Shown here one piece after another: positions 883 to 17,663 of a stretch of DNA of 20,000 nt. How positions within the stretch are numbered: the stretch's first letter is position 1; the number at the start of each line of letters is the position of its first letter. The stretch is from an uncultured virus (IMG/VR IMGVR_UViG_3300031758_009234) (lineage: Duplodnaviria; Heunggongvirae; Uroviricota; Caudoviricetes). The translations under genes were made by a program, and so were the position numbers. The DNA is taken from IMG/VR virus record IMGVR_UViG_3300031758_009234, positions 56,910-76,909 of that record; one strand, 5' to 3'. The notes under the pieces are model-generated. The model ran no database searches and had not been told where the DNA came from. It worked only from the letters and a program-made list of their open reading frames with translations.

Positions 883-2106
883 ATGTACAATATACCAACA
901 TATAACGAAGCTGTCAAACTAACTCAAGGTAAAAGATATGTACCTGAGATAGATCAATATTTAGACGCTGCTTTCTACGAGGCTAAACTTGTAGTTGATG
1001 GGTATAATGTATCTATATTCAACTATCGTTTAGCAACTTACAATGACTTTAAATACAACGATGCTTTTGAATTAAGAGGTTTAGTTTACGTCTTTAATGA
1101 AGATGGTTCTGTGTATAAATCATATAGATTGTTACATAAATTTTTCAACTTAAACCAAGTTGAAGAAACTCAATACTCTTTAGTAAAAGATCGAGTTGTT
1201 AAATCTGTTTTCAATAAAGAAGATGGTTCTATTGGTTCTTTCATAAAATTACCAAACGGAAATGTTGTTGCTAAATCTAAAATGTCTTTTGAATCAGACC
1301 AAGCTTATGGTATGAACAAAATATACAACTCTAACGCAGATATAAAAAGATTTGTTGATTGGTCATTAGATAACGATTTAGTTGCTGTATTTGAGTATGT
1401 GGCTCCACACAACCGTATAGTTTTAAAATATGATAAAGAAGAATTAATCTTATTAAGATTAAGAAGAAACTCTACTGGTGAATACTTAAACCTCCACGAT
1501 TATTCAGATGTTATAGGTGATTTAAAAACTGCTGAGTCTTTTGATCTATCATTAGATGAATTGGTTGAATTGGCTAAAACTGTTGAAGGTGTTGAAGGTT
1601 GGGTAGTTGACTTAGATGGTTTATTTGTTAAAATAAAAACTGTTTGGTATTGTGAAAGACATGGTCTTTTAACAGAAGACTTGTATCGTGAAAACATACT
1701 AGTTAAATACATATTAGATGATAAAATAGATGATGTCTTAGGTCAAATCCCAGAAGATGAAAAAGAAGCACACGCTCGTATAGAAAAAATAATAGCGGCT
1801 GTCTCTAAGGCAGTTAAAATGAAAGTTGATTCTATATTAGAAGATTGGAAAGTGTTTCAAACTATGGCTGATGGTAAAGATTGGACTGGTGATTTAAAAG
1901 ATCAACTAATGAGAAAGTCTTATGCTATGAAGTATAAGAAAACTAAAAATTTTGGAGCTGTGATGTCTATGGCGAAAGGTAACGATGTCTATGATATAGT
2001 TACTGAACAAATAGCTAAGGAAACTTTTAGATTACAAAATGCGAGAGCGTTTTTATTTCAAATAGATCCAACTCTAAACTTTAAAGATGGTGAAATAGAA
2101 GATTAA
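883..2106 (+). CDS. rnlA: T4 Rnl1-family RNA ligase
   Basis: Nucleotidyltransferase motif I KEDGS, plus ELRGL, HKFFN, FEYVAPHNRIV, EGWVV and KIKT motifs characteristic of T4 RNA ligase 1 homologues. Confidence 0.9.
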   Translation: MYNIPTYNEAVKLTQGKRYVPEIDQYLDAAFYEAKLVVDGYNVSIFNYRLATYNDFKYNDAFELRGLVYVFNEDGSVYKSYRLLHKFFNLNQVEETQYSLVKDRVVKSVFNKEDGSIGSFIKLPNGNVVAKSKMSFESDQAYGMNKIYNSNADIKRFVDWSLDNDLVAVFEYVAPHNRIVLKYDKEELILLRLRRNSTGEYLNLHDYSDVIGDLKTAESFDLSLDELVELAKTVEGVEGWVVDLDGLFVKIKTVWYCERHGLLTEDLYRENILVKYILDDKIDDVLGQIPEDEKEAHARIEKIIAAVSKAVKMKVDSILEDWKVFQTMADGKDWTGDLKDQLMRKSYAMKYKKTKNFGAVMSMAKGNDVYDIVTEQIAKETFRLQNARAFLFQIDPTLNFKDGEIED

Positions 2107-2126
2107 GGGAGGTGAAATATCCTCTC
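2107..2126. terminator. Weak hairpin between convergent genes
   Basis: GGGAGG-TGAAATAT-CCTCTC fills the whole gap between the stops at 2106 (+) and 2127 (-); includes one G-U pair and has no clear U-tract. Confidence 0.35.
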
Positions 2127-2411
2127 TTAAAAACTTCTAAAATCTTTTACACCACCTATATTCTGTAAAATTGGTGAGCTATTTTTAATTGATGGTTTGG
2201 AACTAACTGTAATCACATCATCTAAACCTAAACTAGACTTCATCAAGTCTGGATACTTTGTAAAGTAATCCGTTAAGAATTTAATATTCTCTTCCTCTGA
2301 TTTATCATTATCCCAAAGATGTCCAAGATTTTGTTTATTTGTTTCAATATAATCAACAACTTCTTTATTAATAACTGGATTCCAATTAGACCACTCAACT
2401 ATATACTTCAT
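2127..2411 (-). CDS. Hypothetical protein, 94 aa
   Basis: ATG ORF preceded by TTAATATATA 4 nt upstream; starts MKYI. Confidence 0.75.
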   Translation of the reverse strand: MKYIVEWSNWNPVINKEVVDYIETNKQNLGHLWDNDKSEEENIKFLTDYFTKYPDLMKSSLGLDDVITVSSKPSIKNSSPILQNIGGVKDFRSF

Positions 2412-2415
2412 ATTT

Positions 2416-2425
2416 TATATATTAA
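2416..2425 (-). promoter_or_regulatory. Putative phage late-type promoter TTAATATATA
   Basis: Exact 10-mer, 4 nt upstream of the ATG at 2411; recurs upstream of five other genes. Confidence 0.65.
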
Positions 2426-2454
2426 ACTTTCAATATTGAAATTCTATAAATGAT

Positions 2455-3321
2455 ATGAACACATTATATGGGATGGTTACACTTAAAGTAACCAATGAAT
2501 ATGCGGATAAAGCGGTTGATTCATTTTTGAGAAATACTTATTTAGAACCAGGTGACAGATTTATAATGATTGATAATGATGGTGATTTTAAATCAAATTG
2601 GAATAATGGTAGAATAAAAGAAGAAGATATTATAGTAAATAGTAAAATTGAAAATTTTTCTCATAACATGAATATTCTTATGAGAATTGCGGTTGAAGAA
2701 GAAAAAAACCTTATCTTCATGAGTAATGATGTTATCTTTACTCCAAATTGGTCAAAGTTATTGGGGAATAGTGATTATATACTAACTGTTCCATCTTGTA
2801 ATCAAACACATACCGATTTGGGAATACCTGGATTTTTATCACTAAATGACTTTAATGAAAGATATGATATACTAAATCAGATATCAGAACACGTTAATAA
2901 ACAACCATCTTACTTTCAAAGAATGCTAATGGCTTTTTATGTTTGTAGAATACCACTAAAGATAATAAAAGAAGTTGGTGAGTATGATGAAATGTTTACC
3001 GTTGGTGGTGAAGATGTTGATTATAGACTAAGATGTTTAATGAAAGGTTTTGGTGTCACTTATACACCATCATTCCTATTACATTTTAATGGAAAATCTT
3101 CTTGGAATGGAGTTGAAAATACACAACAAATAAAAGAAAGAGAATATAAGTACACAATGCAATTTATATCTAAATGGGGATTAGATTTAAAAGATCTTTG
3201 TTTAGTTAATACTGATGTTATGAGAGTTGTAAATAAATATAACCTATACAACTTTATGAACGAAGGTAACTATAATGGTTTACTATTATATGTCATAAAT
3301 AAAACAAGTATGTCAAAATGA
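2455..3321 (+). CDS. Family 2 glycosyltransferase (GT-A fold)
   Basis: IMIDND, NFSHNMN, FMSNDV, IKEVGEYDE, GGEDVDYRLR and LLHF match rhamnosyltransferase-like GT2 motifs. Confidence 0.8.
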   Translation: MNTLYGMVTLKVTNEYADKAVDSFLRNTYLEPGDRFIMIDNDGDFKSNWNNGRIKEEDIIVNSKIENFSHNMNILMRIAVEEEKNLIFMSNDVIFTPNWSKLLGNSDYILTVPSCNQTHTDLGIPGFLSLNDFNERYDILNQISEHVNKQPSYFQRMLMAFYVCRIPLKIIKEVGEYDEMFTVGGEDVDYRLRCLMKGFGVTYTPSFLLHFNGKSSWNGVENTQQIKEREYKYTMQFISKWGLDLKDLCLVNTDVMRVVNKYNLYNFMNEGNYNGLLLYVINKTSMSK

Positions 3322-3350
3322 CATATAAATTAAAGTGGCACACAATTTGA
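3309..3350 (+). promoter_or_regulatory. Inverted repeat plus sigma54-like promoter upstream of dnaK
   Basis: TATGTCA-AAA-TGACATA perfect 7-bp inverted repeat (3309-3325), then TGGCAC-ACAAT-TTGA (3336-3350) versus the sigma54 consensus TGGCAC-N5-TTGC. Confidence 0.5.
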
Positions 3351-3380
3351 CAATGTATAAATAAAAAACAAAAATAAAAT

Positions 3381-5261
3381 ATGGCAAAAGACGTAATTAT
3401 TGGAATTGACTTAGGAACAACTAACTCGTGTGTAGCAGTAGTTGAAGGTGGTGAACCAATCGTAATCAGTAATGCTGAAGGTAAAAGAACAACTCCTTCT
3501 ATTATTTCATTTACAGAAAATGATAGAAAGATTGGTGATCCAGCAAAAAGACAAGCGGTTACTAACCCTAAAAAAACTATCTACTCAATTAAAAGATTTA
3601 TTGGTAAAGATTTTAATGTTTGTAAAGATGAGGTAACTAGAGTACCTTATGAAGTAGTTTCAAACGGAGCTAATGTACCTACTGTTAAAATCGATGATAG
3701 AAATTATACTCCACAGGAGTTATCAGCAATGATTCTTCAAAAGATGAAGAAAACAGCTGAAGATTATTTAGGATATGAAGTGAAAAGAGCGGTTATTACC
3801 GTACCAGCTTACTTCGGTGATGCTGAGAGAACTGCAACTATTGAGGCTGGTGAAATCGCTGGTTTAAAAGTTGAAAGAATTATCAACGAACCTACAGCAG
3901 CGGCTTTAGCGTATGGTTTAGATAAGAAAAACACAGACTCTAAAATTTTAGTATTTGACTGTGGTGGTGGTACTCATGACGTTTCTGTGTTAGAGATTGG
4001 TGATGGTGTATTTGAAGTAAAATCTACTGACGGTGATACTCACTTAGGTGGTGACGACTTTGATAATGCAATTATTACTTGGATGGTTGAAGAATTCAAA
4101 TCTGAAAACTCTATGGATTTATCAAAAGATCCTATGGCTTTACAAAGATTGAAAGATGCGGCTGAAAAAGCTAAAATTGAATTATCTTCTACATCTGAAA
4201 GTGAAATTAACTTACCTTACATCACAGCTAGAGACGGAATGCCTCTTCACTTTGTTAAGAAATTAACTAAGGCTAAATTTGAACAATTAACTTCATCTTT
4301 AGTTGATAGAGCTATCAGTTGTGCTAAATCAGCTTTGAAAAACGCAGGTTTAAAACCAGCTGATATTGACGAAGTTATCTTAGTAGGTGGTTCTACAAGA
4401 ATTCCAGCAATTCAAGATGCTATTGAAAGTTATATTGGTAAGAAACCAAACAAATCCGTGAACCCTGATGAAGTTGTTGCTTTAGGTGCGGCTATTCAAG
4501 GAGCTGTTTTAACCGGTGGTATTACTGACGTTTTACTTTTAGATGTTACTCCACTTTCTTTAGGTATTGAAACAATGGGTGGTGTGTTTACTAAATTAAT
4601 TGAAGCAAACACTACTATTCCAACTAAGAAAAGTGAAACATTCTCAACAGCATCCGATAATCAACCTTCAGTAGAATTACACGTTTTACAAGGTGAAAGA
4701 GCGATGGCTAAAGACAACCGAACTTTAGGTCGTTTCCACTTAGATGGTATCATGCCAGCTCCAAGAGGAATTCCTCAAATCGAGGTGACTTTTGATATAG
4801 ATGCTAATGGTATCTTATCTGTACACGCTAAAGATAAGGCAACTGGTAAAGAAAATAAAATCCGTATCGAAGGTGGTTCTCAATTAACTAAAGAAGAAAT
4901 TGAGAAAATGAAAGCTGAGGCTGAGGCAAATGCTGAAGCAGATGCTAAAGAAAGAGAGTTAGTTGATAAAATAAACTCAGCAGACTCAATGATTTTCCAA
5001 ACCGAAAAACAAATTAAAGAGTTTGATGAAAAATTAACAGCTGATGATAAGAATGCTTTGAACGCTGACCTTGACGAATTGAAGAAAGCTCATTCCGATA
5101 AAGATGTTCAAAGAATTGATGAATCAATCAGTAAGTTAAACTCGACTTGGAATACAATTTCAACTAAGTTGTATGAACAAAGTCAAACTGAACAAACAAC
5201 AGAAAATACTTCCAGTGGTAATGATGGAGTAGATGATGTTGATTTTGAAGAAGTAAAATAA
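3381..5261 (+). CDS. dnaK: Chaperone DnaK (Hsp70)
   Basis: [59 protein letters not shown] linker, C-terminal DVDFEEVK. Confidence 0.98.
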
Positions 5262-5264
5262 TTT

Positions 5265-5296
5265 AAAAAAGTCCTTGAGAAATCAAGGACTTTTTT
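5265..5296 (+). terminator. Rho-independent terminator after dnaK
   Basis: AAAAAA-GTCCTTGA-GAAA-TCAAGGAC-TTTTTT. Confidence 0.9.
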
Positions 5297-5320
5297 ATTA
5301 TATTTATATAAAATTATTAT

Positions 5321-5710
5321 ATGGAAACAAGAACCGCTAAATTAGCAGCAACCGCTCTTATCTTTAACGAAGATAAATCTAAACTATTAGGTGTATCAAG
5401 AAAAGATGATACAACTAAATTTGGATTACCTGGAGGTAAAGTAGATGTTGGTGAAACATTATATGACGCTTTAGTTAGAGAATTAAAAGAAGAAACAGGA
5501 TTAGATGTAAACTCAGCAAAACCAATTTTCTTTAGAGAAGATGGTGATTTTGTTGCTGTTGTTTATTTAGTAACTGATTGGTCTGGTGAAGTTTCAACAA
5601 CCGAAAAGGGAGTTGTTAAGTGGATTACTTTTGAGGATTTAAAACACGGTGCTTTTTCTGAATATAATACTATGTTAGAAGAACATTTAAGGTTTATCAA
5701 ACTTTTATAA
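5321..5710 (+). CDS. NUDIX hydrolase (MutT-like)
   Basis: Nudix box [24 protein letters not shown]. Confidence 0.93.
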
Positions 5711-5718
5711 TAAAAAAT

Positions 5719-5728
5719 TTAATATATA
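5719..5728 (+). promoter_or_regulatory. Putative phage late-type promoter TTAATATATA
   Basis: Exact 10-mer, 21 nt upstream of the ATG at 5750. Confidence 0.6.
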
Positions 5729-5749
5729 ATAAAAAATTATTATATTTAC

Positions 5750-6244
5750 ATGAAATACATCAAAAGATTTAAAGTCAACGAAAATATGAGCGGTAAGAAA
5801 ATTGTTTACGTAGATATGGACGACACTCTTTGTGATTTTACAGGTCCTTTTAGAAGTGGTCAACAAAATACAGAGGCTTCAGAGGATGAACCAATTAGAA
5901 AGTGGCCTCAGTCAAAAGTTGGTTTTTTCTTAGGTTTACAACCACTACCAGGAGCAATCGAAGGAATGAATACCTTGATGTCTAAGTATGATGTTTGGAT
6001 TTTAACTAGACCATCTATTAAAAACATTCACTGTTATACCGAAAAAGCTGAATGGATTAAGAAATATTTTGGTGAAAAAATGTTAGAGAATATGATTATT
6101 TGTCCAAATAAATCCCTTGTTAAAGGAGACTACTTAATTGATGATGATACAAGACATGGTCAAGTTGAATTTGAAGGAGAACATATTCATTTTGGTAAGG
6201 AAAAATTTCCTAATTGGGATTCAGTTATAGAATACTTAATGTAA
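5750..6244 (+). CDS. 5'(3')-deoxyribonucleotidase (NT5C-type HAD) with a short N-terminal extension
   Basis: VYVDMDDTL (HAD motif I), PLPGAIE, EKAEW, KSLVKGDYLIDD, FPNW; leader MKYIKRFKVNEN precedes a second Met. Confidence 0.88.
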   Translation: MKYIKRFKVNENMSGKKIVYVDMDDTLCDFTGPFRSGQQNTEASEDEPIRKWPQSKVGFFLGLQPLPGAIEGMNTLMSKYDVWILTRPSIKNIHCYTEKAEWIKKYFGEKMLENMIICPNKSLVKGDYLIDDDTRHGQVEFEGEHIHFGKEKFPNWDSVIEYLM

Positions 6245-6456
6245 TGTTTATTTATTGTATAAATAATCGAGGTTTGGAGAAATATCTAACCATCAATAAA
6301 AAATATGAAAATATTGAAGATTTTGTAGAAATTGATGAAGATTTTAACTGGTATAGAATTATCAATGATAAAAACATATCAGGAACATATGATAAATCAA
6401 GATTTGTGACAGTTGATAAGTGGAGAGAAATTCAATTAAATAAATTATTAAAATAA
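6244..6456 (+). CDS. Small hypothetical protein (70 aa) with conserved C-terminal tail; paralog of 14335..14559
   Basis: Start moved to the ATG at 6244 (TAATG overlap with the upstream stop); YCINN..LTINKKYE..WREIQLNKLLK. Confidence 0.75.
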   Translation: MFIYCINNRGLEKYLTINKKYENIEDFVEIDEDFNWYRIINDKNISGTYDKSRFVTVDKWREIQLNKLLK

Positions 6457-6488
6457 AAAAACCCAACTTTTTCAAGTTGGGTTTTTTT
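6455..6488. terminator. Bidirectional rho-independent terminator
   Basis: A7-CCCAACTT-TTTC-AAGTTGGG-T7 between convergent genes. Confidence 0.9.
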
Positions 6489-6494
6489 CATTTA

Positions 6495-7829
6495 TTACCA
6501 TTCATCATCATCATCATCTCCATCGCCATAAGAATCATCTTCACCATATCCTTCCCACGTACCATCAGTATGTTGACAATATCTAATTCTATCTTCATTT
6601 AAACCTTCAATATCGCTATCGTTAGCAGCTTTATTATTTTCAACATCAATACAATACATAGTATCCATATAAGGATACATATCAAACTCAGCTCTATCTA
6701 AATCACAAACAATATCTGGTCTAGTAATCGTTCTTGATCCATTAGAAATATCTCTACCCCCGTATCCTTGATTTGTTTTATAAAAGAATCCTTCTTTTTC
6801 AGCGAATTGTTTGAATAATTCCGTATCACTTTCATAAGCTGTGTAAATTCTATCCATAAAATCTACTTTTTCACCATTGACAGTACAGTTTCTCCAAAGA
6901 ATTGCTCTACCTTTAATTTTATTAGATTGATAAACACCATCAACAACTTCACCTTCATCCGAATAAAGTATAACTAATTCAACATTTTCATTATCACAAT
7001 AAATTGCTAACTTTGTTCTACTAGCACTTTTCATACAAGAATTATTTAATGAACCACCACCACTTACATATCTCAAACCATTATACCAGTGATAAATTTG
7101 ATCACCTTTAACAATTGAGAATTGTCTTAAAGCATCTGCTGCAAAGTCAAATGTTGCTGTAAATTGTTCAACAAATTGAGATAACTCATGATCTGTAAAC
7201 TCTATTTTACCAGCAGTTAAAATAGCTCTCGCCATTCTACCAATTCTCAATGGGTTTCTAGCTGTTGTCCAAATACCATCTAATTCAGGTGCGAATAACT
7301 CTAATCCTTCTTTGTTAATAACAGATACTCTTGGATTTTCTTTATCAGAACCATCTCTGTTAGTTTCTTCAACTTTACAATAAACTTTACCTGAACTTTT
7401 TGAAGTTGTTTCGGTTACAATTTTCATAACTTCTCCAACACCAACAGACCATCTATCACCAGTACCACCCGGCCATGGCTCAGCTTTATTATATTCTAAT
7501 CTCCCGAAGATTGCATCATTTGAGTCACTATGAGTTAAACATTTATTACCTTGGATACATTTCCAAACTACTGGTCTAGCAGCTAATAATTGTTGAACTC
7601 TTCTGTCTGGTGTGAAAGAGAAAGTTTCTCTATCAGTCACATCAATATAGTTTTGTGTAATACCATCAACATCAACTTTATTTAATTTCAATAACTCTTG
7701 AGCAATTCTATTACGAGTCATTCTTTTTAACAAATTAACTAATTTAGGTGAAAAAATCAACACAGATTCGTTGATTAAATCAAAAACTTGTTTCTCTGTT
7801 AAGTATTCATTATATCTTAAAATACTCAT
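6495..7829 (-). CDS. Hypothetical phage protein, 444 aa, with SCM / GRAILW / MDRIY / YPYMDT motifs and an acidic tail
   Basis: Long ORF; the motif series resembles an uncharacterised family I recall from large phages; function not assignable. Confidence 0.8.
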   Translation of the reverse strand: MSILRYNEYLTEKQVFDLINESVLIFSPKLVNLLKRMTRNRIAQELLKLNKVDVDGITQNYIDVTDRETFSFTPDRRVQQLLAARPVVWKCIQGNKCLTHSDSNDAIFGRLEYNKAEPWPGGTGDRWSVGVGEVMKIVTETTSKSSGKVYCKVEETNRDGSDKENPRVSVINKEGLELFAPELDGIWTTARNPLRIGRMARAILTAGKIEFTDHELSQFVEQFTATFDFAADALRQFSIVKGDQIYHWYNGLRYVSGGGSLNNSCMKSASRTKLAIYCDNENVELVILYSDEGEVVDGVYQSNKIKGRAILWRNCTVNGEKVDFMDRIYTAYESDTELFKQFAEKEGFFYKTNQGYGGRDISNGSRTITRPDIVCDLDRAEFDMYPYMDTMYCIDVENNKAANDSDIEGLNEDRIRYCQHTDGTWEGYGEDDSYGDGDDDDDEW

Positions 7830-7851
7830 CCTTAAAAATTTCTTTTTTTTG

Positions 7852-7861
7852 TATATATTAA
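7852..7861 (-). promoter_or_regulatory. Putative phage late-type promoter TTAATATATA
   Basis: Exact 10-mer, 22 nt upstream of the ATG at 7829. Confidence 0.6.
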
Positions 7862-7895
7862 TTTTTTATCATGAAAAAATAAAAATATATACATT

Positions 7896-8135
7896 ATGAA
7901 AAGAAAAGTGGCTAAAATAATAGAAATATTGGGTATAGGTCTAACAGAAATTGTTATTGACTTAGATACTAGTTTAGGTACTTTTAATTCAATAGAGTGG
8001 TCTAAATCAGAGAATAAAGTTTGGCTTCATATGTTTCATGAAGATGATATACAAATATCATTTGATTTTGATGATCTAGACAAAATAGACAAATCTATGG
8101 TTTATACATTATTAGCTTCTATAGCTTATAATTAA
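7896..8135 (+). CDS. Hypothetical protein, 79 aa
   Basis: ATG ORF with the variant motif AAAATATATA 4 nt upstream; stop overlaps the stop of the convergent gene (TTAA). Confidence 0.7.
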   Translation: MKRKVAKIIEILGIGLTEIVIDLDTSLGTFNSIEWSKSENKVWLHMFHEDDIQISFDFDDLDKIDKSMVYTLLASIAYN

Positions 8136-8635
8136 ATTCCTCTATTACCTCTTTCTTTTTCTAAATAAGCTTTAACATCTTCCCAAGTTACTCCACCAGG
8201 ATTACTAGTTAATTTATCAGCATTACCTTTTGGTTTTTCTTCTTGTTTTTTTAGTTCGTTATTTTTAACTAACTCTTCATATTTCTCATCAATATCTTTA
8301 ATAATAGATCCTAAATAAGCGTCAATTCCTTTTTGGTTAAGAATACTCTTATCAAAATCAACTACAAACTCTTCGAAAGTATCACCATAATAAATACCCA
8401 TAACCGGTTCCATAATATAATGATCTGTGTAAAATCTTATATTTCCAATTCGACCTTGCGCGTAAATAGTTGTTTTATAATTACCATTATAAGATTGAGA
8501 AAATCGATCTTGATCATTAAAAACTCTTTGACCATTTTTTTCAACGGTTGGTACAAAACCTAAATTAACTTGAAAGTATTTAGATCTTTTTATCTCTTGT
8601 AAGATTGTAAAGTTTGTTACTATATTTATTTCCAT
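8132..8635 (-). CDS. Hypothetical protein, 167 aa
   Basis: ATG ORF with the variant motif TAAATAAATA 4 nt upstream. Confidence 0.8.
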   Translation of the reverse strand: MEINIVTNFTILQEIKRSKYFQVNLGFVPTVEKNGQRVFNDQDRFSQSYNGNYKTTIYAQGRIGNIRFYTDHYIMEPVMGIYYGDTFEEFVVDFDKSILNQKGIDAYLGSIIKDIDEKYEELVKNNELKKQEEKPKGNADKLTSNPGGVTWEDVKAYLEKERGNRGI

Positions 8636-8669
8636 GAATTATTTATTTAAAAATAAAATTTCCCTAAAC

Positions 8670-8695
8670 AAAAAAATCACCATTTAGGTGATTTT
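8670..8695 (-). terminator. Rho-independent terminator for 8698..9390
   Basis: On the - strand AAAATCACC-TAAAT-GGTGATTTT-TTT, immediately after the stop. Confidence 0.75.
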
Positions 8696-8697
8696 AT

Positions 8698-9390
8698 TTA
8701 TTCTGTTTCGTATTCTAATCCTTTATTTTCTCCATACTTATCATCAAAATCTGATTTTAAGAATTCTAAAAATTCAAGTAATGACATTTTTTCACTTTCT
8801 GGTGTTTCTTCTTGAGTAGGAGCTTCTTGTTGATTTTGACCTTGAGCAGGAGCTTGAGCGGCAGGCTTTTTATTTAGACTTAATTTAAACTCACCATCTT
8901 CCTTTTCTATATTAACATTATGTGTTGTTTGACCAATTAAATCAATTTCATCTACACCATATTTCTTAAACTTAACATACATTTTTGTTATATCATCACT
9001 TGAAAAATCAGCATTTGGATCTTTTGGTATACCATCTTTTATATTAATAGAAATATAAAGATTATAAACACCATCACCATCAGAGTATTTAACTGTTAAT
9101 GAATCGTCTGTTTGTGAATAAACTGATATTTCAGAACTATGTAGTTTAACTCCTTGTTCTGAAAGGCTAACAACACGTTTCTTACTTTTTTTATTTGAAT
9201 TTTCTTTAGCTTGATTAATTGATATATTCTCTTCTTCTGTTTCATCAACATTATCTTCATTAAATAAATCATCAACAGCTTTTTTTAACTCCATTAATTT
9301 ACCTTTGATGTAAGTTTCAGGTGTATCGTTTGCTTCATTAATTTTGTTTTCATTAACAAAATCAGAATATCTTAATATTTTACTTTTCAT
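8698..9390 (-). CDS. Hypothetical acidic protein, 230 aa; possible virion-internal protein
   Basis: Leader MKSKILRYSDFVNENKINE; low-complexity PAAQAPAQGQNQQEAPTQEE linker. Confidence 0.8.
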   Translation of the reverse strand: MKSKILRYSDFVNENKINEANDTPETYIKGKLMELKKAVDDLFNEDNVDETEEENISINQAKENSNKKSKKRVVSLSEQGVKLHSSEISVYSQTDDSLTVKYSDGDGVYNLYISINIKDGIPKDPNADFSSDDITKMYVKFKKYGVDEIDLIGQTTHNVNIEKEDGEFKLSLNKKPAAQAPAQGQNQQEAPTQEETPESEKMSLLEFLEFLKSDFDDKYGENKGLEYETE

Positions 9391-9394
9391 ACTT

Positions 9395-9404
9395 TATATA
9401 TTAA
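9395..9404 (-). promoter_or_regulatory. Putative phage late-type promoter TTAATATATA
   Basis: Exact 10-mer, 4 nt upstream of the ATG at 9390. Confidence 0.65.
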
Positions 9405-9519
9405 TTTTTTATTCCCAAAAATAGATAGAAAGACAATTAATTCAATATATATGGTATATACTAAACTTAGACTGTAAGTTATTGTATAATAAAAAAAGAC
9501 AAAAATAAATCTTAAATAT

Positions 9520-11439
9520 ATGAGTTTATTAAGCACGATAAAAAAAGACTTTACCCAAGGTGATAAAGATATTTCTTTACAGGAATTTTTAGAACTTTGT
9601 AAAAAGGATAAAGTTTATTCTTCACCAGCTGAGAGAATGTTACAAGCTATTGGTGAACCAGAAGTAGTTGATACTAAGCTAGATGAAAGACTTAGTAGAA
9701 TTTACTCTAACAAATTAATTAAAAGATATCCAGCATTCTCGGAATTCTTTGGAATGGAAGATACTATTGAACAAATTGTTTCTTTCTTTAGACACGCAGC
9801 TCAAGGATTAGAAGAAAAGAAACAAATTCTTTACCTTTTAGGACCAGTTGGTGGTGGTAAATCTTCTTTAGCAGAAAGATTAAAACAACTAATGGAAAAA
9901 AGTCATATTTATGTGCTTGTTGCTGACGGTGAAGTTTCACCGGTATTTGAGAACCCACTTGGATTATTTTCTTCTTATAGAGAAGAATTAGAAAAGGAAT
10001 ATGGTATTCCAAAAAGATATATTCCTTCTTGTGCTTCTCCATGGGCTACTAAAAGATTAGCTGAGTTTGATGGTGATGTAACTAAGTTCTCAGTTAGAAA
10101 ATTAAAAATGTCTATCGCATCTCAAGTAGGTATCGCTAAAACTGAACCAGGTGATGAAAACAACCAAGATATCTCAGCTTTAGTTGGTAAAGTAGATATC
10201 CGTAAATTGGCTGAGTTTCCACAAAATGATGCTGATGCTTATAACTACTCTGGTGCTCTTTGTAGAGCTAATCAAGGTATGATGGAATTCGTAGAGATGT
10301 TTAAAGCTCCTATCAAAGTTTTACACCCACTATTAACTGCTACTCAAGAAGGTAACTTTAATGGTACTGAAAACTTACCAGCTATTCCGTTCCAAGGGAT
10401 TATTTTAGCTCACTCAAATGAGTCTGAATGGGAAACATTCTCAAACGATAAAAAGAACGAAGCTTTCTTAGACCGTGTTTACATTGTAAGAGTTCCTTAT
10501 TGTTTAAGAGTTGATGAAGAAGTTGAAATCTATGAAAAACTTTTAAAACATTCTTCTTTATCTGAAGCACCTTGTGCACCACAAACTTTAGACTTGTTGG
10601 CTAAGTTTTGTGTTATGACAAGATTAAAACACCCTGAGAACTCAAATTTATACTCTAAAATGAGAGTTTATAATGGTGAATCTTTAAAAGAATCTGATCC
10701 TAAAGCAAAATCTTTACAAGAATATAAAGATGACGCGGGTATCACAGAAGGTATGAATGGTATTTCTACTCGTTTCGCTTTTAAAGTTCTTTCTAAAGTA
10801 TTTAATCACGACACTGAAGAAGTTGCTGCTAACCCAGTACACCTTTTCTATGTGTTAGAAAATGAAATTGTTAAATTACAATTACCAAAAGAAACTGAAG
10901 AATACTACTTAAATATCTTAAAGTCTAAAATCAGTACAAAATATGCTGAGTTTATTGGTGATGAAATTCAAAAAGCTTATGTAGATTCTTATCAAGAATA
11001 TGGACAAAACTTATTTGAAAGATATATCACTTATGCTGACCACTGGTGTCAAGATAATGACTTTAGAGATCCAGAAACAGGACAACAATTTGATAGAGCT
11101 GCTCTTAACGAAGAGTTAGAGAAAATTGAAAAACCAGCTGGTATCGCTAATCCAAAAGATTTCAGAAATGATGTTGTACAATTCTATTTAAGACATAGAG
11201 CTAAGAATGGTGAATCACCAACTTGGGATTCTTATGAGAAAATTAGAAGTGTGATTGAAAAGAGAATTTTTTCTAAAACTGAAGATATCATTCCAGTTAT
11301 TTCTTTCACTTCTAAAGCTTCTAAAGACGAAGAAAAGAAACATTCAGAATTCATCAATAGAATGAAGGATAGAGGATACACTAACAAACAGATTAAGTTA
11401 TTAACTGACTGGTATCTAAGAGTTAGAAAATCAAATTAA
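9520..11439 (+). CDS. prkA: PrkA/YeaG family AAA+ ATPase (annotated as serine protein kinase)
   Basis: Walker A GPVGGGKSS, KTEPGDENNQDISALVGKVDIRKL, VEMFKAPIKVLHPLLTATQEG, EAFLDR, GISTRFAFK; 639 aa. Confidence 0.96.
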   Translation: MSLLSTIKKDFTQGDKDISLQEFLELCKKDKVYSSPAERMLQAIGEPEVVDTKLDERLSRIYSNKLIKRYPAFSEFFGMEDTIEQIVSFFRHAAQGLEEKKQILYLLGPVGGGKSSLAERLKQLMEKSHIYVLVADGEVSPVFENPLGLFSSYREELEKEYGIPKRYIPSCASPWATKRLAEFDGDVTKFSVRKLKMSIASQVGIAKTEPGDENNQDISALVGKVDIRKLAEFPQNDADAYNYSGALCRANQGMMEFVEMFKAPIKVLHPLLTATQEGNFNGTENLPAIPFQGIILAHSNESEWETFSNDKKNEAFLDRVYIVRVPYCLRVDEEVEIYEKLLKHSSLSEAPCAPQTLDLLAKFCVMTRLKHPENSNLYSKMRVYNGESLKESDPKAKSLQEYKDDAGITEGMNGISTRFAFKVLSKVFNHDTEEVAANPVHLFYVLENEIVKLQLPKETEEYYLNILKSKISTKYAEFIGDEIQKAYVDSYQEYGQNLFERYITYADHWCQDNDFRDPETGQQFDRAALNEELEKIEKPAGIANPKDFRNDVVQFYLRHRAKNGESPTWDSYEKIRSVIEKRIFSKTEDIIPVISFTSKASKDEEKKHSEFINRMKDRGYTNKQIKLLTDWYLRVRKSN

Positions 11440-11440
11440 T

Positions 11441-11466
11441 AAAAAGGGAGTTTATCTCCCTTTTTT
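11441..11466 (+). terminator. Rho-independent terminator after prkA
   Basis: AAAAAGGGAG-TTTAT-CTCCCTTTTTT. Confidence 0.8.
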
Positions 11467-11484
11467 AAAATATAATAATATGAT

Positions 11485-11604
11485 ATGCCACTTCCTCATT
11501 ATGCTTATAACTATAATAGATATTTAGTTATGAATCGTAGAAGAAAAATTAAAAAAATTTATAAAGATGTCAATAAATATAGTAGATCGAAGAAAGAGTC
11601 CTAA
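11485..11604 (+). CDS. Possible small basic protein, 39 aa (not in the ORF track)
   Basis: MPLPHYAYNYNRYLVMNRRRKIKKIYKDVNKYSRSKKES*; overlaps the yeaH start by 38 nt; TATAAT at 11471-11476. Confidence 0.35.
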   Translation: MPLPHYAYNYNRYLVMNRRRKIKKIYKDVNKYSRSKKES

Positions 11605-12832
11605 GGGAAAATCTTCGGAAAATAGACAAAGATTATTAAAAAGAATTGAAGGTCAAATTAAAAAGGCTCTTCCTGACATCGTTAAGAATACCAATGTTAA
11701 AGATTTGACATCTTCAAAAGAAAGAGTTAATATCCCAGTCAAAGGCATTAATGAACCACAATTCACTTATGATAAAGATACTGGTGATAAAAAACATGTA
11801 CATCCTGGTAACAAAGAATATTCAGAAGGTGATTTAATAAAAAAACCAAAAAGTGGTCAAGGTAAAGGTAGTGGTCAAGGTAAAGGATCAAATGATCCAA
11901 ATGCTACAGAAGATGACTTTACTGTATCAATAAGTCGAGAAGAATTCTTAGATTACTTTTTCAATGATCTAGAATTACCAGATATGGTTAAAAAACATTT
12001 AAACTCTATTGTTGATTTTAAACAAAAAAGAGCTGGTTATTCTAACTATGGTAATCCAAGTAGATTAAATATAACTCGTTCATATAAAAACTCAATGGCT
12101 CGTAGGATGGCTGTTGGTATGTTTTTCGATAAAAAGATTAAAGAAATTGAAGAAAAATTAAAGTCTGATTTATTAGATGATGAGAGAAATGAATTACTTA
12201 AAGAATTAGATAAGCTAAAAAAGATGAAGTTATCAGTTTCTTTTATGGAGGAAGTTGATTTACAATATAATAACTTTGAGAAAGTTGCTATACCAGTTAC
12301 TTCAGCTGTTATGTTTTGTGTAATGGACGTTTCTGGTTCAATGGGTGAGAAAGAGAAAGATATAGCTAAAAGATTTTTTATGTTATTATATATGTTTCTT
12401 ACAAAACAATATGAGAAAATTGAGATTGTCTTTATAAGACACCATACTTCAGCAAAAGAAGTTACTGAGGATGAATTCTTTAACTCTAAAGAAAGTGGTG
12501 GTACCGTTGTGGTAACTGCTTTAGAATTGATGGCAAAAATCATTAGAGAAAGATATAATGAAAACTGGAACATATACGCCGCTCAAGCCTCTGATGGTGA
12601 TGTTTGGGATAAGGCAGATGCTAGTGATTGTTATAAAATATTAGACGTTGATATATTAAACAAAGTTCAGTATATGACATATATCGAAATATGTAGAAGT
12701 GTAGATGGTGATCTTTGGAACAACTATAAGGTTTTATCTGATAAAAGAAAGAACTTTGAGATAGGTAAGATTAATGAAGTAAGTGAAATTTGGAAAGTAT
12801 TCCAAGATTTCTTTAAAAAGAAAACAGCATGA
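11567..12832 (+). CDS. yeaH: YeaH/YhbH (DUF444) vWA-domain protein
   Basis: IVDRR..KGKSSENRQR, VHPGNKEY, AVMFCVMDVSGSM (MIDAS DxSxS), FIRHHT, ESGGT, WNIYAAQASDGD; lies directly after prkA. Confidence 0.94.
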   Translation: MSINIVDRRKSPKGKSSENRQRLLKRIEGQIKKALPDIVKNTNVKDLTSSKERVNIPVKGINEPQFTYDKDTGDKKHVHPGNKEYSEGDLIKKPKSGQGKGSGQGKGSNDPNATEDDFTVSISREEFLDYFFNDLELPDMVKKHLNSIVDFKQKRAGYSNYGNPSRLNITRSYKNSMARRMAVGMFFDKKIKEIEEKLKSDLLDDERNELLKELDKLKKMKLSVSFMEEVDLQYNNFEKVAIPVTSAVMFCVMDVSGSMGEKEKDIAKRFFMLLYMFLTKQYEKIEIVFIRHHTSAKEVTEDEFFNSKESGGTVVVTALELMAKIIRERYNENWNIYAAQASDGDVWDKADASDCYKILDVDILNKVQYMTYIEICRSVDGDLWNNYKVLSDKRKNFEIGKINEVSEIWKVFQDFFKKKTA

Positions 12833-14322
12833 TGACTAAAGAAGAATTAAAAAAATTATTTTCAAAACCTGATTGGACTGATGAAACTATTATAGAAGCT
12901 GATAAAGTTGTTAGTAGAATCGCTAGTGAATATTTAGGTATTGAAACATATCCAAATCAATTTGAAATAATAACATCTGAACAAATGTTGGATGCTTATT
13001 CATTAATTGGTTTACCAATTTCTTATAATCACTGGAAATTTGGTAAAGACTTTGTTATTAACTCAAATCAATATAAGAAAGGTAGAATGGGATTGGCTTA
13101 TGAGTTAGTTATTAATTCAAATCCTTGTATATCTTACAATATGGAAGATAACACAACTTGTCTTATGATCTTAGTATTAGCTCACGCCGCATACGGTCAT
13201 AACACATTCTTTAAAAATAATTATCTTTTCAAACAATGGACTCAGGCAGATTCAATCATTGATTATATGGTCTTTGCTAAAGAGTTTGTTGCTAAATGCG
13301 AAGAGAAATACGGATTTGAAGAGGTAGAAATGGTTTTAGATGCTTGCCACGCCTTAATGAACTATGGTGTTGATAAATATAAAAAACCTAGAAAATTAAG
13401 TCCAACTGAAGAAGGAGAAAGACTTAAAAAGAAATTAGAAGATGATAGAATTCTTTTAAATGATTTATGGAGAACTATTCCTAAAGATGAGAAAGAAAAA
13501 CTTAAAGAAAAAAGATTTCCTGAATCACCGGAAGAAAATATTCTTTACTTCATTGAGAAAAACTCTCCTAAGTTGAGAGGGTGGCAAAGAGAAATTGTTA
13601 GAATTGTTAGAAAAACTGCTCAATACTTTTACCCACAAGGTCAAACAAAAGTTATTAATGAAGGATGTGCTACTTTTACACACTATGAAATTATTAATAA
13701 AATGTTCGATGAAGGTTATTTATCAGACGGTTTTATGCAAGAGTTTTATCATAATCATTCTAATGTTATTTTTCAACCAGGATTTGACTCTAAGTTTTAC
13801 TCTGGATTGAATCCATATACATTAGGGTTCAATATCTTTCAAGATTTAAAAAGAATGTCTTTAAACCCAACTAAAGAAGATTTGGAATGGTTTCCTAAGA
13901 TTGCTGGAAAAGGTAATTGGGCTGAAAACTTCAAATATATCGTTGAAAACTTTAAAGATGAAACATTTGTTTTACAATATCTTTCACCTAAGGTTATTAG
14001 AGATATGAAATTATTTGAAATTGATGATAAAATGGATAATAACTATTATGAAGTTAGTTCTATACATAATGAGAATGGTTATAAAAAAGTAAGAGAATCT
14101 TTATCACAATCTTATAATAGAAGTAGATACGTACCAGATATTCAAGTATATGATGTTGATATATTCGGAGATAGAACACTTACTTTAGAATATACACCTA
14201 TTAATAATAAAGGTCTAGATTATAATGATATTAAAAAAGTTTTACCTCACGTTGAATATCTATGGGGATTCCCAGTTAGAATGACTGAAAATGGTAAAGA
14301 ATTAGCAACTACAAAGAAATAA
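12829..14322 (+). CDS. spoVR: SpoVR/YcgB family protein
   Basis: YPNQFEIITSEQMLDAY, HWKFGK, GLAYELVINSNPCI, AHAAYGHNTFFKNN, QYFYPQGQTKVINEGCATF, NPYTLGF; ATGA overlap with yeaH. Confidence 0.95.
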   Translation: MMTKEELKKLFSKPDWTDETIIEADKVVSRIASEYLGIETYPNQFEIITSEQMLDAYSLIGLPISYNHWKFGKDFVINSNQYKKGRMGLAYELVINSNPCISYNMEDNTTCLMILVLAHAAYGHNTFFKNNYLFKQWTQADSIIDYMVFAKEFVAKCEEKYGFEEVEMVLDACHALMNYGVDKYKKPRKLSPTEEGERLKKKLEDDRILLNDLWRTIPKDEKEKLKEKRFPESPEENILYFIEKNSPKLRGWQREIVRIVRKTAQYFYPQGQTKVINEGCATFTHYEIINKMFDEGYLSDGFMQEFYHNHSNVIFQPGFDSKFYSGLNPYTLGFNIFQDLKRMSLNPTKEDLEWFPKIAGKGNWAENFKYIVENFKDETFVLQYLSPKVIRDMKLFEIDDKMDNNYYEVSSIHNENGYKKVRESLSQSYNRSRYVPDIQVYDVDIFGDRTLTLEYTPINNKGLDYNDIKKVLPHVEYLWGFPVRMTENGKELATTKK

Positions 14323-14326
14323 AAAG

Positions 14327-14352
14327 AAACCCACTCATTTGAGTGGGTTTTT
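14327..14352. terminator. Terminator hairpin after spoVR, overlapping the 3' end of the convergent gene
   Basis: AAACCCACTC-ATTT-GAGTGGGTTT-TT. Confidence 0.85.
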
Positions 14353-14559
14353 TAATATATCATCTAATTTTTCATCTCTTACTTTTGAAACAGATTTAAA
14401 ATCCGATAAATAAGCTTGAATTGTTTTATATCCTACTGATGTAGTCTTATCAGGTATTTTAACCCAAACACATTTAGGGTGTTCGTGTTCAAATATTTCA
14501 TAGGTTTTTCCTATTTCTATCTCACTTCTATTTGAAGTATTACTAATACAAATATACAT
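14335..14559 (-). CDS. Small hypothetical protein (74 aa) with conserved C-terminal tail; paralog of 6244..6456
   Basis: YICISN..IEIGKTYE..VRDEKLDDILK; TATATTTG element at 14585-14578. Confidence 0.75.
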   Translation of the reverse strand: MYICISNTSNRSEIEIGKTYEIFEHEHPKCVWVKIPDKTTSVGYKTIQAYLSDFKSVSKVRDEKLDDILKNPLK

Positions 14560-14597
14560 ATCACCAATTTATAAAAACAAATATAATAAAAATTATG

Positions 14598-15269
14598 TTA
14601 TTTAACTTTTATTTTATATGCTTTTTCAACTTTAGCTCCTCTTAAATCATATTTAGATAAATCAACATTTTCAATTTTACCTAAAGTTTTTAATTTACCT
14701 ATTTTATTTTCAATTGGTTTTAAAGAACAAAAAGCAATAGTTCCACCTACTTCAGATACTTTTGACTCCATTCTAGATGAAGCATTTACAGCATTTCCGA
14801 AAAAGTCTCTTAACTCAACCTTTTGAATACTATATGTTTTTTCATCCATATGACCTTCACAAATACCAACTCTTAAACTATAAGCTTTTTCATTAAGTAT
14901 AAGTTCTTTTGAGAATTTAATAGCATTGAATAATGAGTTCTCATTTGGTTCAAAATAAACCATGAAAGCATCACCAATTGTTTTAACAATCCATCCATTA
15001 TTTTTAGAAGCTAAACTATCCACTAATTTATGATGAGCTTCTAATTGACCAATCATAGTAACTGGATCATCAGACCACATTTTTGATGAACCTACAACAT
15101 CAGTAAAAACCATTGTTGGAACTGGTCCCGATTTTTTCTGTAATTCTGGACTTTCTTTATATTCTTTTTGAGCTTGTGTTAAAACTCTTTCGGATCTTAC
15201 ATTTGATTTATTATCAGTTGGTTCTTGCTCATCAGCTTCAAATAAACGAAAATTATTGATGTGTTTCAT
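14598..15269 (-). CDS. Class III nucleotidyl cyclase, predicted adenylate cyclase, catalytic domain only
   Basis: VFTDVVGSS (metal Asp), VKTIGDAFM (Lys and metal Asp), LRVGI, DFFGNAVNASSRMES (Asp; catalytic Asn/Arg). Confidence 0.92.
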   Translation of the reverse strand: MKHINNFRLFEADEQEPTDNKSNVRSERVLTQAQKEYKESPELQKKSGPVPTMVFTDVVGSSKMWSDDPVTMIGQLEAHHKLVDSLASKNNGWIVKTIGDAFMVYFEPNENSLFNAIKFSKELILNEKAYSLRVGICEGHMDEKTYSIQKVELRDFFGNAVNASSRMESKVSEVGGTIAFCSLKPIENKIGKLKTLGKIENVDLSKYDLRGAKVEKAYKIKVK

Positions 15270-15588
15270 TTGTTAGTTTATTTTTTATAAGAGCACACTT
15301 TTCATACTCTTCTTTTTCTTCTAATTCAGGAAGTAATTTTTTCAATTCATATACATCATTTAGTTCTAAACAAACCCAGAACTTTATATCAGATAAATCA
15401 CTATAATCTTCGATATAATGATCGATTATATCATTTACTTCATTACTATGTTCAGCTTTCATAAAGATATCTTCCCACTTATCTATACAGTTTCTTTTTA
15501 GATAATCTAATATCTCATCAACTATAACTTCAATATGTAATTCTTTTTCTGTTGAAAAATTCTCATTAAATCTTTTTAAGTATTTCAT
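15253..15588 (-). CDS. Hypothetical protein, 111 aa, with a C-terminal UVR-like coiled-coil motif
   Basis: Leader MKYLKRFNE; EEKEEYEKCALIKNKL resembles the UvrB/UvrC (UVR) motif; 17-nt overlap with the cyclase gene. Confidence 0.75.
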   Translation of the reverse strand: MKYLKRFNENFSTEKELHIEVIVDEILDYLKRNCIDKWEDIFMKAEHSNEVNDIIDHYIEDYSDLSDIKFWVCLELNDVYELKKLLPELEEKEEYEKCALIKNKLTNETHQ

Positions 15589-15608: not shown

Positions 15609-15626
15609 TATATATATATATATTAA
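15609..15626 (-). promoter_or_regulatory. TTAATATATA motif extended into a (TA)7 tract
   Basis: TATATATATATATAT at 15609-15623; motif at 15626-15617, upstream of the ATG at 15588. Confidence 0.55.
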
Positions 15627-15633: not shown

Positions 15634-16428
15634 TTATTGATTTTTCTGCCAATAGTTTTTACCAGGCATTTCTAATTTATTTTTTTTAATACACCAAGTT
15701 ACTTGCCTTGCTGTCACATTTAGTTCCTTAGCTATTTTTGGGACTGACATTTTCCAGATTAGTGGTTTTATTAGTTCTAATAATTCACTATCATCTTTGA
15801 AATAACCATCTTTTCTTTTCTCTTTTGTTTTAAGAAAAACATTTTTGTAAAAATCCTCCAAATCAGACTTCAAATATTCTTCTCTCTTCTCATCAAAGTT
15901 TATAAAACAATATTTACCAAGTAAATATAGAGAAACTTTATCATACATCTCAGCTGCTTCAATTTCACTATTTGTGAATTTAACTTTTGATATTTGATTA
16001 TTATCAAATCTACACATCCAAGATTTTTTACTTTCCTTCCAATAAACACCTTTATACTTTGATGATTTTTTATTATTTGGTTTATAACTAGTTCCTAATC
16101 TAAAGGTAGATAGATGTTTTTTCAACTCATCATCAACAAATTTATTATCACCACAACCTCTTATATTATAACCATTTGGTCTGTATGTATTATACTTTTC
16201 TGCATATTTAACTTCTAATTTGTTTAACTCATCAATATCTTTAACATTATCTTCTAATATTTCAAAATCAAAATTTTCTAACCCGTATTTATCAACCGAG
16301 TTTTTAAGAATTATGTTGTGTGTATATTTTAACCAATCACCACCTTTGTATCTTTTATTGAAACTATGAACAGATTGTCCTATATAAGATTTGCAATTTA
16401 TTTTATTAAAAATTCTATATATTATCAT
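15634..16428 (-). CDS. Free-standing GIY-YIG homing endonuclease with AP2-like and HTH-like DNA-binding modules
   Basis: IIYRIFNKINCKSYIGQS (GIY-YIG), catalytic-type R and E, GYNI; SSKYKGVYW..W..EIEAAEMYD (AP2-like); SVPKIAKELNVT (HTH-like). Confidence 0.88.
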   Translation of the reverse strand: MIIYRIFNKINCKSYIGQSVHSFNKRYKGGDWLKYTHNIILKNSVDKYGLENFDFEILEDNVKDIDELNKLEVKYAEKYNTYRPNGYNIRGCGDNKFVDDELKKHLSTFRLGTSYKPNNKKSSKYKGVYWKESKKSWMCRFDNNQISKVKFTNSEIEAAEMYDKVSLYLLGKYCFINFDEKREEYLKSDLEDFYKNVFLKTKEKRKDGYFKDDSELLELIKPLIWKMSVPKIAKELNVTARQVTWCIKKNKLEMPGKNYWQKNQ

Positions 16429-16432: not shown

Positions 16433-16442
16433 TATATATTAA
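16433..16442 (-). promoter_or_regulatory. Putative phage late-type promoter TTAATATATA
   Basis: Exact 10-mer, 4 nt upstream of the ATG at 16428. Confidence 0.6.
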
Positions 16443-17398: not shown

Positions 17399-17663
17399 GT
17401 TTAAAGTAGGTGATGAAGTTTTAATCAAAACACGTATAAATACCTTTGATGGGTTTTTTAAACATGGAATTATATTAGAAGTTGTTTTATCACCTAAACT
17501 ACGTGGTGATAGTCTTGACGAATGGTATTATAGAGTTGAATATGATCCACTTGAAGGTAGAAGTTCGGAAAATCATAAATACACTGATTACTTTAATGAA
17601 ACCGAATTAGATTACACATTACAAACGAAAAGAGATAATAAACTAAAGGAACTTGGATTATGA
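17289..17663 (+). CDS. Hypothetical protein, paralog of 18052..18339; start codon uncertain
   Basis: KFKVGDEV..YFNETELDY..KRDNKLKELGL aligns with 18052..18339; nearest in-frame ATG (17289) lies 110 nt inside uvsE. Confidence 0.6.
   Translation: MKRFKRLVLNLIQRLKQKPKIWRLSSIEVSFKYSKAKFKVGDEVLIKTRINTFDGFFKHGIILEVVLSPKLRGDSLDEWYYRVEYDPLEGRSSENHKYTDYFNETELDYTLQTKRDNKLKELGL

Follow-up and report, generated by a model that had tools for sequence, protein, structure and literature searches.

Short N-terminal leaders on unrelated proteins of an uncultured huge phage as candidate T4-like capsid-targeting propeptides

The DNA considered here, further called the window, is a stretch of 20,000 nucleotides from an uncultured virus of Caudoviricetes (IMG/VR record IMGVR_UViG_3300031758_009234, positions 56,910 to 76,909) and makes up the final 20 kb of one contig, which is 76,909 bp long and has 27.8% G+C. 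Several unrelated proteins encoded in it begin with similar short leaders, and we show that this leader is an add-on restricted to the N-terminus and selected at the protein level, while its form, distribution and likeness to known tags make it reasonably probable that such leaders are T4-like capsid-targeting propeptides cut after Glu and used at the scale of the whole proteome. Under this reading the leader genes would be transcribed from a late promoter class alongside virion genes; the tag, which has 8–14 residues with a basic start, two conserved aromatic or aliphatic positions and aromatic/hydrophobic-x-Glu at its end, would attach to the prohead core, probably through mimicry of one unit of a scaffold of ~13 repeats (core Y-S-E-Y-I-A-E) fused to the protease; the head protease would then cut after Glu and the tag would leave, so that the mature protein would be retained in the head and delivered with DNA. 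The steps from core binding through cleavage and packaging to injection are our inference from sequence data.

The contig was analyzed as a set of 117 genes obtained by greedy collection of open reading frames (ORFs) and compared with two relatives, the complete genome W01 (LR756502.1, 642,428 bp, 971 greedy ORFs) and the 735-kb genome W02 (LR756501.1, 1018 proteins). An earlier reading of the window, made from the sequence only, had named six leader-bearing genes, and their ORFs and N-termini were all reproduced. The genes and leaders relevant here are as follows (leader types and matrices are defined below).

5750..6244, plus strand: 5'(3')-deoxyribonucleotidase (HAD, NT5C) with leader; PF06941, E 5.7e-15
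5750..5782, plus strand: leader of the nucleotidase, MKYIKRFKVNE (type II); W01-trained matrix 15.6
6495..7829, minus strand: conserved protein of 444 aa, function unassigned; leader MSILRYNEYLTE (type I, T4-like) at 7794-7829
8698..9390, minus strand: protein of 230 aa, function unassigned; leader MKSKILRYSDFVNE (type I-like) at 9349-9390
14598..15269, minus strand: class III nucleotidyl cyclase; leader MKHINNFRLFE (15237-15269) followed by a linker of ~40 aa; PF00211, E 4.9e-18; matrix 12.6
15253..15588, minus strand: protein of 111 aa, function unassigned; leader MKYLKRFNE (15562-15588); matrix 22.7
2127..2411, minus strand: gene for 94 aa, not a leader gene (MKYIVEWSNW); matrix 0.1, no match to the regular expression; promoter 2416-2425
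15634-16428, minus strand: homing-endonuclease-like gene without leader, behind TTAATATATA at 16433-16442

For the census the leader was described by the regular expression MK.[ILV][KRN].[FYW], tested at residue 1. It opens 13 of the 117 contig proteins and matches at one internal Met, while 10 matches of its core over 21,908 internal positions imply only 0.32 at the contig N-termini; leaders are thus enriched at N-termini. The same expression is matched by 83 W01 proteins, and the leaders of these 83 were used to build the type II (W01-trained) matrix, which at a threshold of at least 8 selects 114 of the 971 W01 N-termini and, on the contig, 11 of 117 N-termini vs 6 of 22,844 internal positions and 1 of 431 internal Met. 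A looser expression is found at 16 of 117, 132 of 971 and 77 of 1018 N-termini of the contig, W01 and W02, respectively, vs 1.7, 12.6 and 13.5 after shuffling of the N-termini. Depending on the definition, 114–158 of the 971 W01 proteins carry a leader, so that the tagged share of the proteome is about 12–16%, i.e. one protein in seven to eight. The type II matrix retrieves merely 3 of 1018 W02 proteins, this genome having shorter variants such as MIKK[FY]..FE. Within the window the nucleotidase, the cyclase and the 111-aa protein pass the W01-trained matrix (scores as listed above), while the genes starting at 7829 and 9390 fail it but pass the second matrix described below. Five of the six N-termini named previously thus stand as leaders, and MKYIVEWSNW (2411), which fails both matrices, does not.

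The consensus reads M-K-[HY]-[LI]-[KR]-x-[YF], followed by N-E, E-x-F or K-[IL]-F-E, with Ser often next. The first Glu occupies position 8, 9 or 11 in 72 of the 83 W01 leaders, and the residue two positions before Glu (P3) is F, Y, L, I or V in 67 of 80, so the end of the leader appears to match a hydrophobic-x-Glu protease site. Identical versions recur: the nine residues MKYLKRFNE also open the contig gene 40754-41398, and an exact DNA pattern for MKHLKK[FY]NE occurs 80 times on 77 IMG/VR stretches; in 71 of these cases it is placed at the frame's first ATG, and in 25 cases TAATATATA lies within 45 nt. Leader genes are clustered (66 adjacent pairs vs 25.4 expected). On the contig, three tandem genes at 3457-4651 (minus strand) each begin with MKHLRKFNE, two of them being distant paralogues. 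Another short element, DPYG[EDQ] (mostly DPYGEE-W), was noticed in 91 of 1018 W02 proteins, in 22 of them within the first 40 residues and often directly after the leader; neither the contig nor W01 contains it.

That the leader is an add-on and not a signature of one protein family follows from several comparisons. When 21 leader or leader-like contig proteins deprived of their first 16 residues were compared by blastp with all 117, a single pair emerged (contig 3457/4259), which rules out paralogy of leader proteins and corroborates the assertion that the proteins are unrelated. Homologues of the nucleotidase with 72–79% identity have their start Met aligned with the second Met of the window protein, just where the sequence-only reading had placed the beginning of the normal domain; a minority of the homologues have leader variants, one of them residing on a 444-kb contig. 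The nearest homologues of the cyclase bear leader variants with the ~40-aa linker, and homologues of ~200 aa begin at the catalytic domain, so that alignments of both enzymes present the leader as an addition to them. In the AlphaFold model of the nucleotidase, leader residues 1-11 have a predicted local distance difference test (pLDDT) below 50, adopt no secondary structure and are detached from the confidently predicted HAD fold. Synonymous codons at leader positions 2-11 follow genomic usage (e.g. His CAT.47/CAC.53, four Leu codons), and the leader is therefore selected as protein; the same free variation rules out an element acting at the nucleotide level.

Candidate cargo is largely anonymous. 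In W01, 100 of the 108 leader proteins scanned (of 114) have no Pfam family, and six match above curated cut-offs (HNH, SET, GNAT, phage lysozyme and two DUF6576). A PHROGs search with 21 leader or leader-like contig proteins left 18 without a family and assigned none to structural families, and is uninformative. In the cyclase both metal-binding Asp motifs (FTDVVGSS and IGDAF) are preserved. A conserved RSxRLLT segment precedes the catalytic domain in leader-bearing members but is C-terminal in other homologues, a placement that looks like relocation or permutation.

The relation to the T4 tag was approached through the head machinery of the relatives. The W01 genome has genes for a portal of T4 type (PF07230, E 1e-58), a capsid protein of Gp23 type (PF07068, E 4.5e-28), a tail sheath and a head maturation protease recognized weakly by PF03420 (E 1.8e-5, below cut-off) and clearly by phrog_207 (E 6e-28). 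This protease is fused to ~13 tandem 13-residue repeats NIxYSEYIAENLDK with the core YSEYIAE, and the W02 protein is arranged alike; the fusions are 699–807 aa long and have relatives on 99 of 110 candidate IMG/VR stretches. W01, W02 and a third relative, W03, each have the T4-type set of prohead protease, scaffold, portal and Gp23 capsid protein. Search of the W01 protease-scaffold against PDB sequences gave no match at E <= 0.01. A second matrix was derived from 25 scaffold 7-mers alone and applied with threshold 8 to the first 12 start positions of N-termini. It yields 3 N-terminal matches vs 0.5 expected on the contig, 9 vs 2.7 in W01 and 18 vs 3.3 in W02, and in the positive control with 263 greedy T4 ORFs it ranks the internal proteins IPII and IPIII first and second (15.1), the third being Inh, the inhibitor of the prohead protease (9.5). 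With this matrix the 444-aa protein scores 13.7, which is the best value of the contig, contig gene 39349 scores 8.1 and gene 9390 scores 7.8. The T4 core proteins gp22, gp67, gp68, gp21 and gp24 also start with [LI]-x-Glu segments.

The proven T4 tag is MKTYQEFIAE (bioRxiv 10.1101/2021.01.19.427310), and mutagenesis reported in section 2.6 of PMC9026906 assigns residues 4 and 7 to targeting and residues 8 and 10 to processing. Among the matches listed for the 444-aa family, 117 of 120 homologues keep M-x-I-L-[KR]-Y-x-[DE]-Y-[IL]-[TS]-E, and over 40 sequences Y6 and E12 are invariant while L4 and Y9 are nearly so; we infer that Y6, Y9, [IL]10 and E12 would correspond, with an offset of two residues, to T4 residues 4, 7, 8 and 10. 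The 444-aa protein has no Pfam family and no Foldseek match at E <= 0.001, and VIA-align gave middling similarities to SH3-like (Z 5.7, 55 aligned, root-mean-square deviation 2.1) and GNAT-like folds (Z 5.4, 116 aligned, root-mean-square deviation 4.3). Complex prediction for two scaffold-repeat copies and the N-terminal 45 residues of this protein gave no answer (score 0.00), which, obtained without controls, is evidence neither way.

Likeness to the proven tag at its functional positions thus holds for subtype I only (7829, 9390 and contig 39349), and the resemblance to the T4 capsid-targeting sequence ascribed earlier to all leaders has to be divided: it stands for this subtype, by the matrix that puts IPII and IPIII first, and is less certain for subtype II, whose matrix finds none of the 263 T4 N-termini. 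For subtype II the link to the T4 tag is indirect and would go through shared architecture, intermediate forms and orthologue swaps. Leader styles are swapped in orthologue pairs of the contig and W01; the W01 homologue of gene 9390 starts with MKIRKFTEFINE and the best W01 match of gene 15588 (34% identity) with MSRIRKYKEFITE. Ten NFACT-R orthologues located beside the capsid gene and 63–72% identical to the first have leaders of either style with 8–13 residues, the junction Glu and the following KK being invariant. Such stand-alone NFACT-R proteins (PF05670, 127–132 aa), with leader and late-type promoter, are encoded ~2 kb downstream of the protease-scaffold gene in many relatives. Overall, among the window genes the two of subtype I have a good sequence case, while the case for the three of subtype II, both enzymes included, is indirect.

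The leaders had also been coupled to one promoter motif. The window has six exact copies of TTAATATATA vs 0.45 expected, a number reached in none of 200 shuffles, and all six copies precede an ATG by 4–28 nt, including, as had been noticed, those of the named genes other than the cyclase:

2416-2425, minus strand: before gene 2127..2411
5719..5728, plus strand: 21 nt before the nucleotidase ATG
7852..7861, minus strand: 22 nt before the ATG at 7829
9395..9404, minus strand: 4 nt before the ATG at 9390
15617..15626, minus strand: 28 nt before the ATG at 15588
16433..16442, minus strand: 4 nt before the homing-endonuclease-like gene lacking a leader

The cyclase is the second gene of the unit begun at 15617-15626, and its start overlaps the end of 15253-15588 by 17 nt, in agreement with the overlapping arrangement described before. 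Promoter and leader are separable, since the copy at 16433-16442 stands before a gene without leader. At the level of genomes two upstream motifs are prominent, TAATATATA and the host-type TAnnTTTG, the latter of which we take to be the Bacteroidetes -7 box, and both lie either 4–8 or 18–28 (in a wider bracket 15–30) nt before ATG. PHROGs families were assigned to 22 of the 103 examined TAATATATA genes without leader (out of 107, four crossing piece borders being left out), of which seven encode structural proteins (portal, head protein, tail fibre, tube, baseplate hub and wedge, adaptor) and four are endonucleases (homing or HNH endonuclease or endonuclease VII). For TAnnTTTG 71 of 73 genes were examined and 20 have a family, none of them structural as best match; helicase, nucleotidyltransferases, RNase H, RNA ligase and NUDIX are represented there. 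Because structural genes follow TAATATATA and none follows TAnnTTTG, TTAATATATA/TAATATATA may be considered as a general late promoter class.

Directly upstream, TAATATATA is found for 6 of 16 leader genes and 19 of 101 others on the contig (p 0.11), and for 70 of 158 vs 90 of 813 in W01. If transcription units are reconstructed by an upstream walk along genes of the same strand with gaps of up to 80 nt, TAATATATA-led units accommodate 13 of 16 leader genes vs 38 of 101 others on the contig (p 0.002) and 118 of 158 vs 181 of 813 in W01 (p 4e-36), while TAnnTTTG-led units contain none of 16 and 5 of 158 leader genes, respectively. Thus, the proposed enrichment of leaders among motif-driven genes is seen at the level of transcription units. 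In W01, 90 of 160 genes with TAATATATA directly upstream carry no leader, and 88 of 158 leader genes are located inside operons with no such motif directly before them. The coupling is real at the level of promoter class and there is no fixed cassette, because the spacing varies from 4 to 28 nt and each element occurs alone; the portable promoter+leader module envisaged in the sequence-only reading therefore finds no support as a fixed entity, and the same variable distance and separability speak against a fixed mobile promoter cassette of the PeSL type. The motif ends 4 nt before ATG in 12 of the 22 exact copies upstream of contig genes (e.g. 2416-2425, 9395-9404 and 16433-16442), and in W01 a motif 4 nt before ATG, with AATATATA, accounts for 55 of 160. 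Since this distance is often 4–8 nt, many mRNAs may be leaderless or near-leaderless.

A second putative tag, RDxx[ILV]xx[ILV][ILVG], was observed among the C-terminal 16 residues of proteins and is exemplified in the window by 14335-14559 (minus strand), 17660-18055 (plus strand) and 18052-18339 (plus strand). It is found in 8 of 117 contig, 79 of 971 W01 and none of 1018 W02 proteins, with 24 internal matches over 184,807 positions. In W01 the C-terminal tag and the N-terminal leader are mutually exclusive (none shared between 158 and 79; p 6e-7), and none of the 79 genes with the C-terminal tag stands behind TAATATATA.

Among known systems the capsid-targeting sequence of T4 (on IPII and IPIII, a related one on IPI, removed by gp21) is the nearest: it likewise is an N-terminal addition of ~10 aa to unrelated proteins, ends with hydrophobic-x-Glu and belongs to a clade with the T4-type module of portal, protease, scaffold and capsid protein, and the subtype I cores Y-N-E-Y-L-T-E and Y-S-D-F-V-N-E resemble its Y-Q-E-F-I-A-E. 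T-even internal proteins are described as diverse, with this sequence as their only common part (PMC3012670). In contrast to the handful of tagged proteins in T4, ~12–16% are tagged here; the dominant subtype MK[HY]L[KR]x[YF]NE / ...YK[IL]FE is lineage-specific and absent from T4, and candidate cargo is mostly acidic and includes enzymes (nucleotidase, cyclase and NFACT-R; HNH, SET, GNAT and lysozyme in the relative). Portal, protease, scaffold and capsid protein genes succeed one another in the same order as around T4 gp21 and gp22, although protease and scaffold form one protein here and the scaffold is a tandem array of a tag-like 13-residue unit. Encapsulin cargo-loading peptides also direct diverse enzymes into an HK97-fold shell by a short terminal peptide, but are usually C-terminal, are not removed and involve no protease. 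In phiKZ-like giant phages (SPN3US, phiKZ and 201phi2-1) propeptides of ejection or inner-head proteins are cut at (A/S)-x-Glu, and a T4-related head protease trims N-terminal propeptides of many internal proteins after Glu; as described in PMC5694885, these are mostly 80–160 residues long and share no short tag, ~8 of ~50 head proteins being processed, and the phages belong to another clade. PeSL cassettes of T4-type phages resemble the late motif in being a repeated promoter element before many ORFans in plastic regions and a possible substrate for shuffling, but consist, according to PMC2839356, of an early sigma70-like promoter and a stem-loop with no coding part, whereas the motif considered here is of late type, has variable spacing and is accompanied by a shared peptide. 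In the literature searched we found no description of a leader-tag system in huge phages and no occurrence of the strings MKHLKK, MKYLKK, MKHLKT, MKYIKK and MKHLKR, and "capsid targeting" did not occur among the matches listed for megaphage, huge, Lak or jumbo phages.

Several points weigh against capsid-targeting propeptides. Cleavage and packaging of the leader proteins are predicted from sequence, and one protein in seven to eight as cargo would be an unprecedented number of species. Leader proteins are acidic (median isoelectric point 5.1 vs 5.9, with 75% below 6), while T4 internal proteins are highly basic. Why a nucleotidase of housekeeping type or an NFACT-R protein should be injected is not obvious. 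Pfam detects no head or tail genes among the 117 genes of the 77-kb contig, so protease and scaffold are known from the relatives only. With the type II matrix, which as said retrieves no T4 N-terminus, IPI ranks 7th with a negative score, and conservation of the N-terminus in the 444-aa family could be plain family conservation.

Part of these points would be accommodated if the tag addressed or processed late proteins for a purpose other than capsid loading, such as activation or turnover by the head-type or another phage protease, or docking to another late assembly or to the DnaK/DnaJ/GrpE/ClpB chaperones of the phage itself. What the data show is limited to late co-expression and a tag ending in Glu, genes for Hsp70, DnaJ, GrpE and ClpB are present in the phage, a share of ~12–16% and acidity poorly suit capsid cargo, and the mutually exclusive C-terminal tag (0 of 158) suggests a wider scheme of sorting or turnover; even so we consider this unlikely, as subtype I matches the scaffold repeat as well as the capsid tag proven in T4, T4 uses the same motif without a DnaK of its own, and leader genes are located within the head module. 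Still less probable appears the opinion that the peptide is idle, a by-product of expression or acquisition left by recombining promoters with first codons or by translation of leaderless mRNAs. It would agree with very short or absent 5' leaders implied by a motif 4–8 nt before ATG (at 4 nt in the 55 W01 cases), with recombination of conserved promoter cassettes that shuffles ORFans of T4-type phages (PMC2839356), with the clustering of leader genes and with recurrence of the MKHLKK[FY]NE DNA pattern, a part of it near TAATATATA. It is contradicted by synonymous codons varying like the rest of the genome, by the 88 of 158 leader genes without their own promoter and the variable spacing, by the leaders of one orthologue that change length and form but always keep the aromatic residue and the junction Glu, and by the majority of late genes having no leader.

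Chance similarity of AT-rich N-termini, hidden paralogy or a gene-calling artefact hardly deserves credence: although K, I, N, Y and F are common at this G+C content and the patterns were defined after examples had been seen, the controls with internal Met, internal positions and shuffled N-termini gave values 6- to 40-fold lower and rule out composition, the matrix from another genome transfers to the contig, a single paralogous pair exists and the type II matrix is silent on T4. A Sec or lipoprotein signal peptide was rejected as well, for leaders of 8–14 residues are rich in K, R, N and E and have no hydrophobic run (~10–15 residues expected), and true signal-like N-termini in W02 differ from them.

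As to the origin of the DNA, megablast matches to the contig are only three uncultured phage records of 634–642 kb and run across the PrkA/DUF444 genes, while the closest relatives of the UvsX-like protein belong to five uncultured phages of 634–735 kb (50–85% identity), followed by Lak phages and then T4-like cyanophages. On these similarities the contig is placed in the uncultured 634–735 kb "Mahaphage" group, whose predicted hosts are Bacteroidetes according to PMC7162821. At least half of the words sampled from window positions 2000-10000 are present in six public runs; apart from four possible source runs, the remaining two (of two studies) are labelled as freshwater or aquatic metagenome. 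Pfam reveals on the contig gp32, the RecA/UvsX-like protein, two RNA ligases, the small subunit of ribonucleotide reductase, PrkA-DUF444-SpoVR, a glycosyltransferase block and homing endonucleases. The complete operon PrkA - DUF444 (YeaH) - SpoVR occupies window positions 9520-14322 on the plus strand (E 9e-171, 7e-146 and 2e-155) and is the sole queried part conserved at the DNA level with the 634–642 kb phages. Hsp70 (DnaK), DnaJ, GrpE and a ClpB-type disaggregase are encoded at window 3381-5261 (plus strand) and contig 51852-54321 and 21440-23629, and a flavodoxin/FMN-reductase-like gene at contig 16595-18511 (plus strand) is split by an intein with LAGLIDADG endonuclease.

Taken at face value, the leaders make it probable that the phage head carries a protein cargo of unusual size. 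A broader picture, which we offer tentatively and regard as doubtful in its entirety, is that more than 100 late proteins (~1 gene in 7) would be loaded by tags mimicking the scaffold repeat, trimmed and injected as fast-evolving effectors including the cyclase and the nucleotidase, that the mutually exclusive C-terminal tag would mark a non-late class, and that the T4 tag would be a small remnant or relative of the scaffold-mimic principle. The likeness of the tag to the scaffold repeat offers a testable candidate for the binding partner of the T4 capsid-targeting sequence, which a T4 review describes as unresolved (PMC9958956). If capsid-targeting propeptides are indeed involved, the largest known phages would deliver, besides DNA, a large and variable set of ready-made proteins, so that host take-over and counter-defence of such phages would be seen differently; a simple sequence rule would point to candidate injected effectors in uncultured phages, and the tags could broaden the T4 protein-packaging toolbox.

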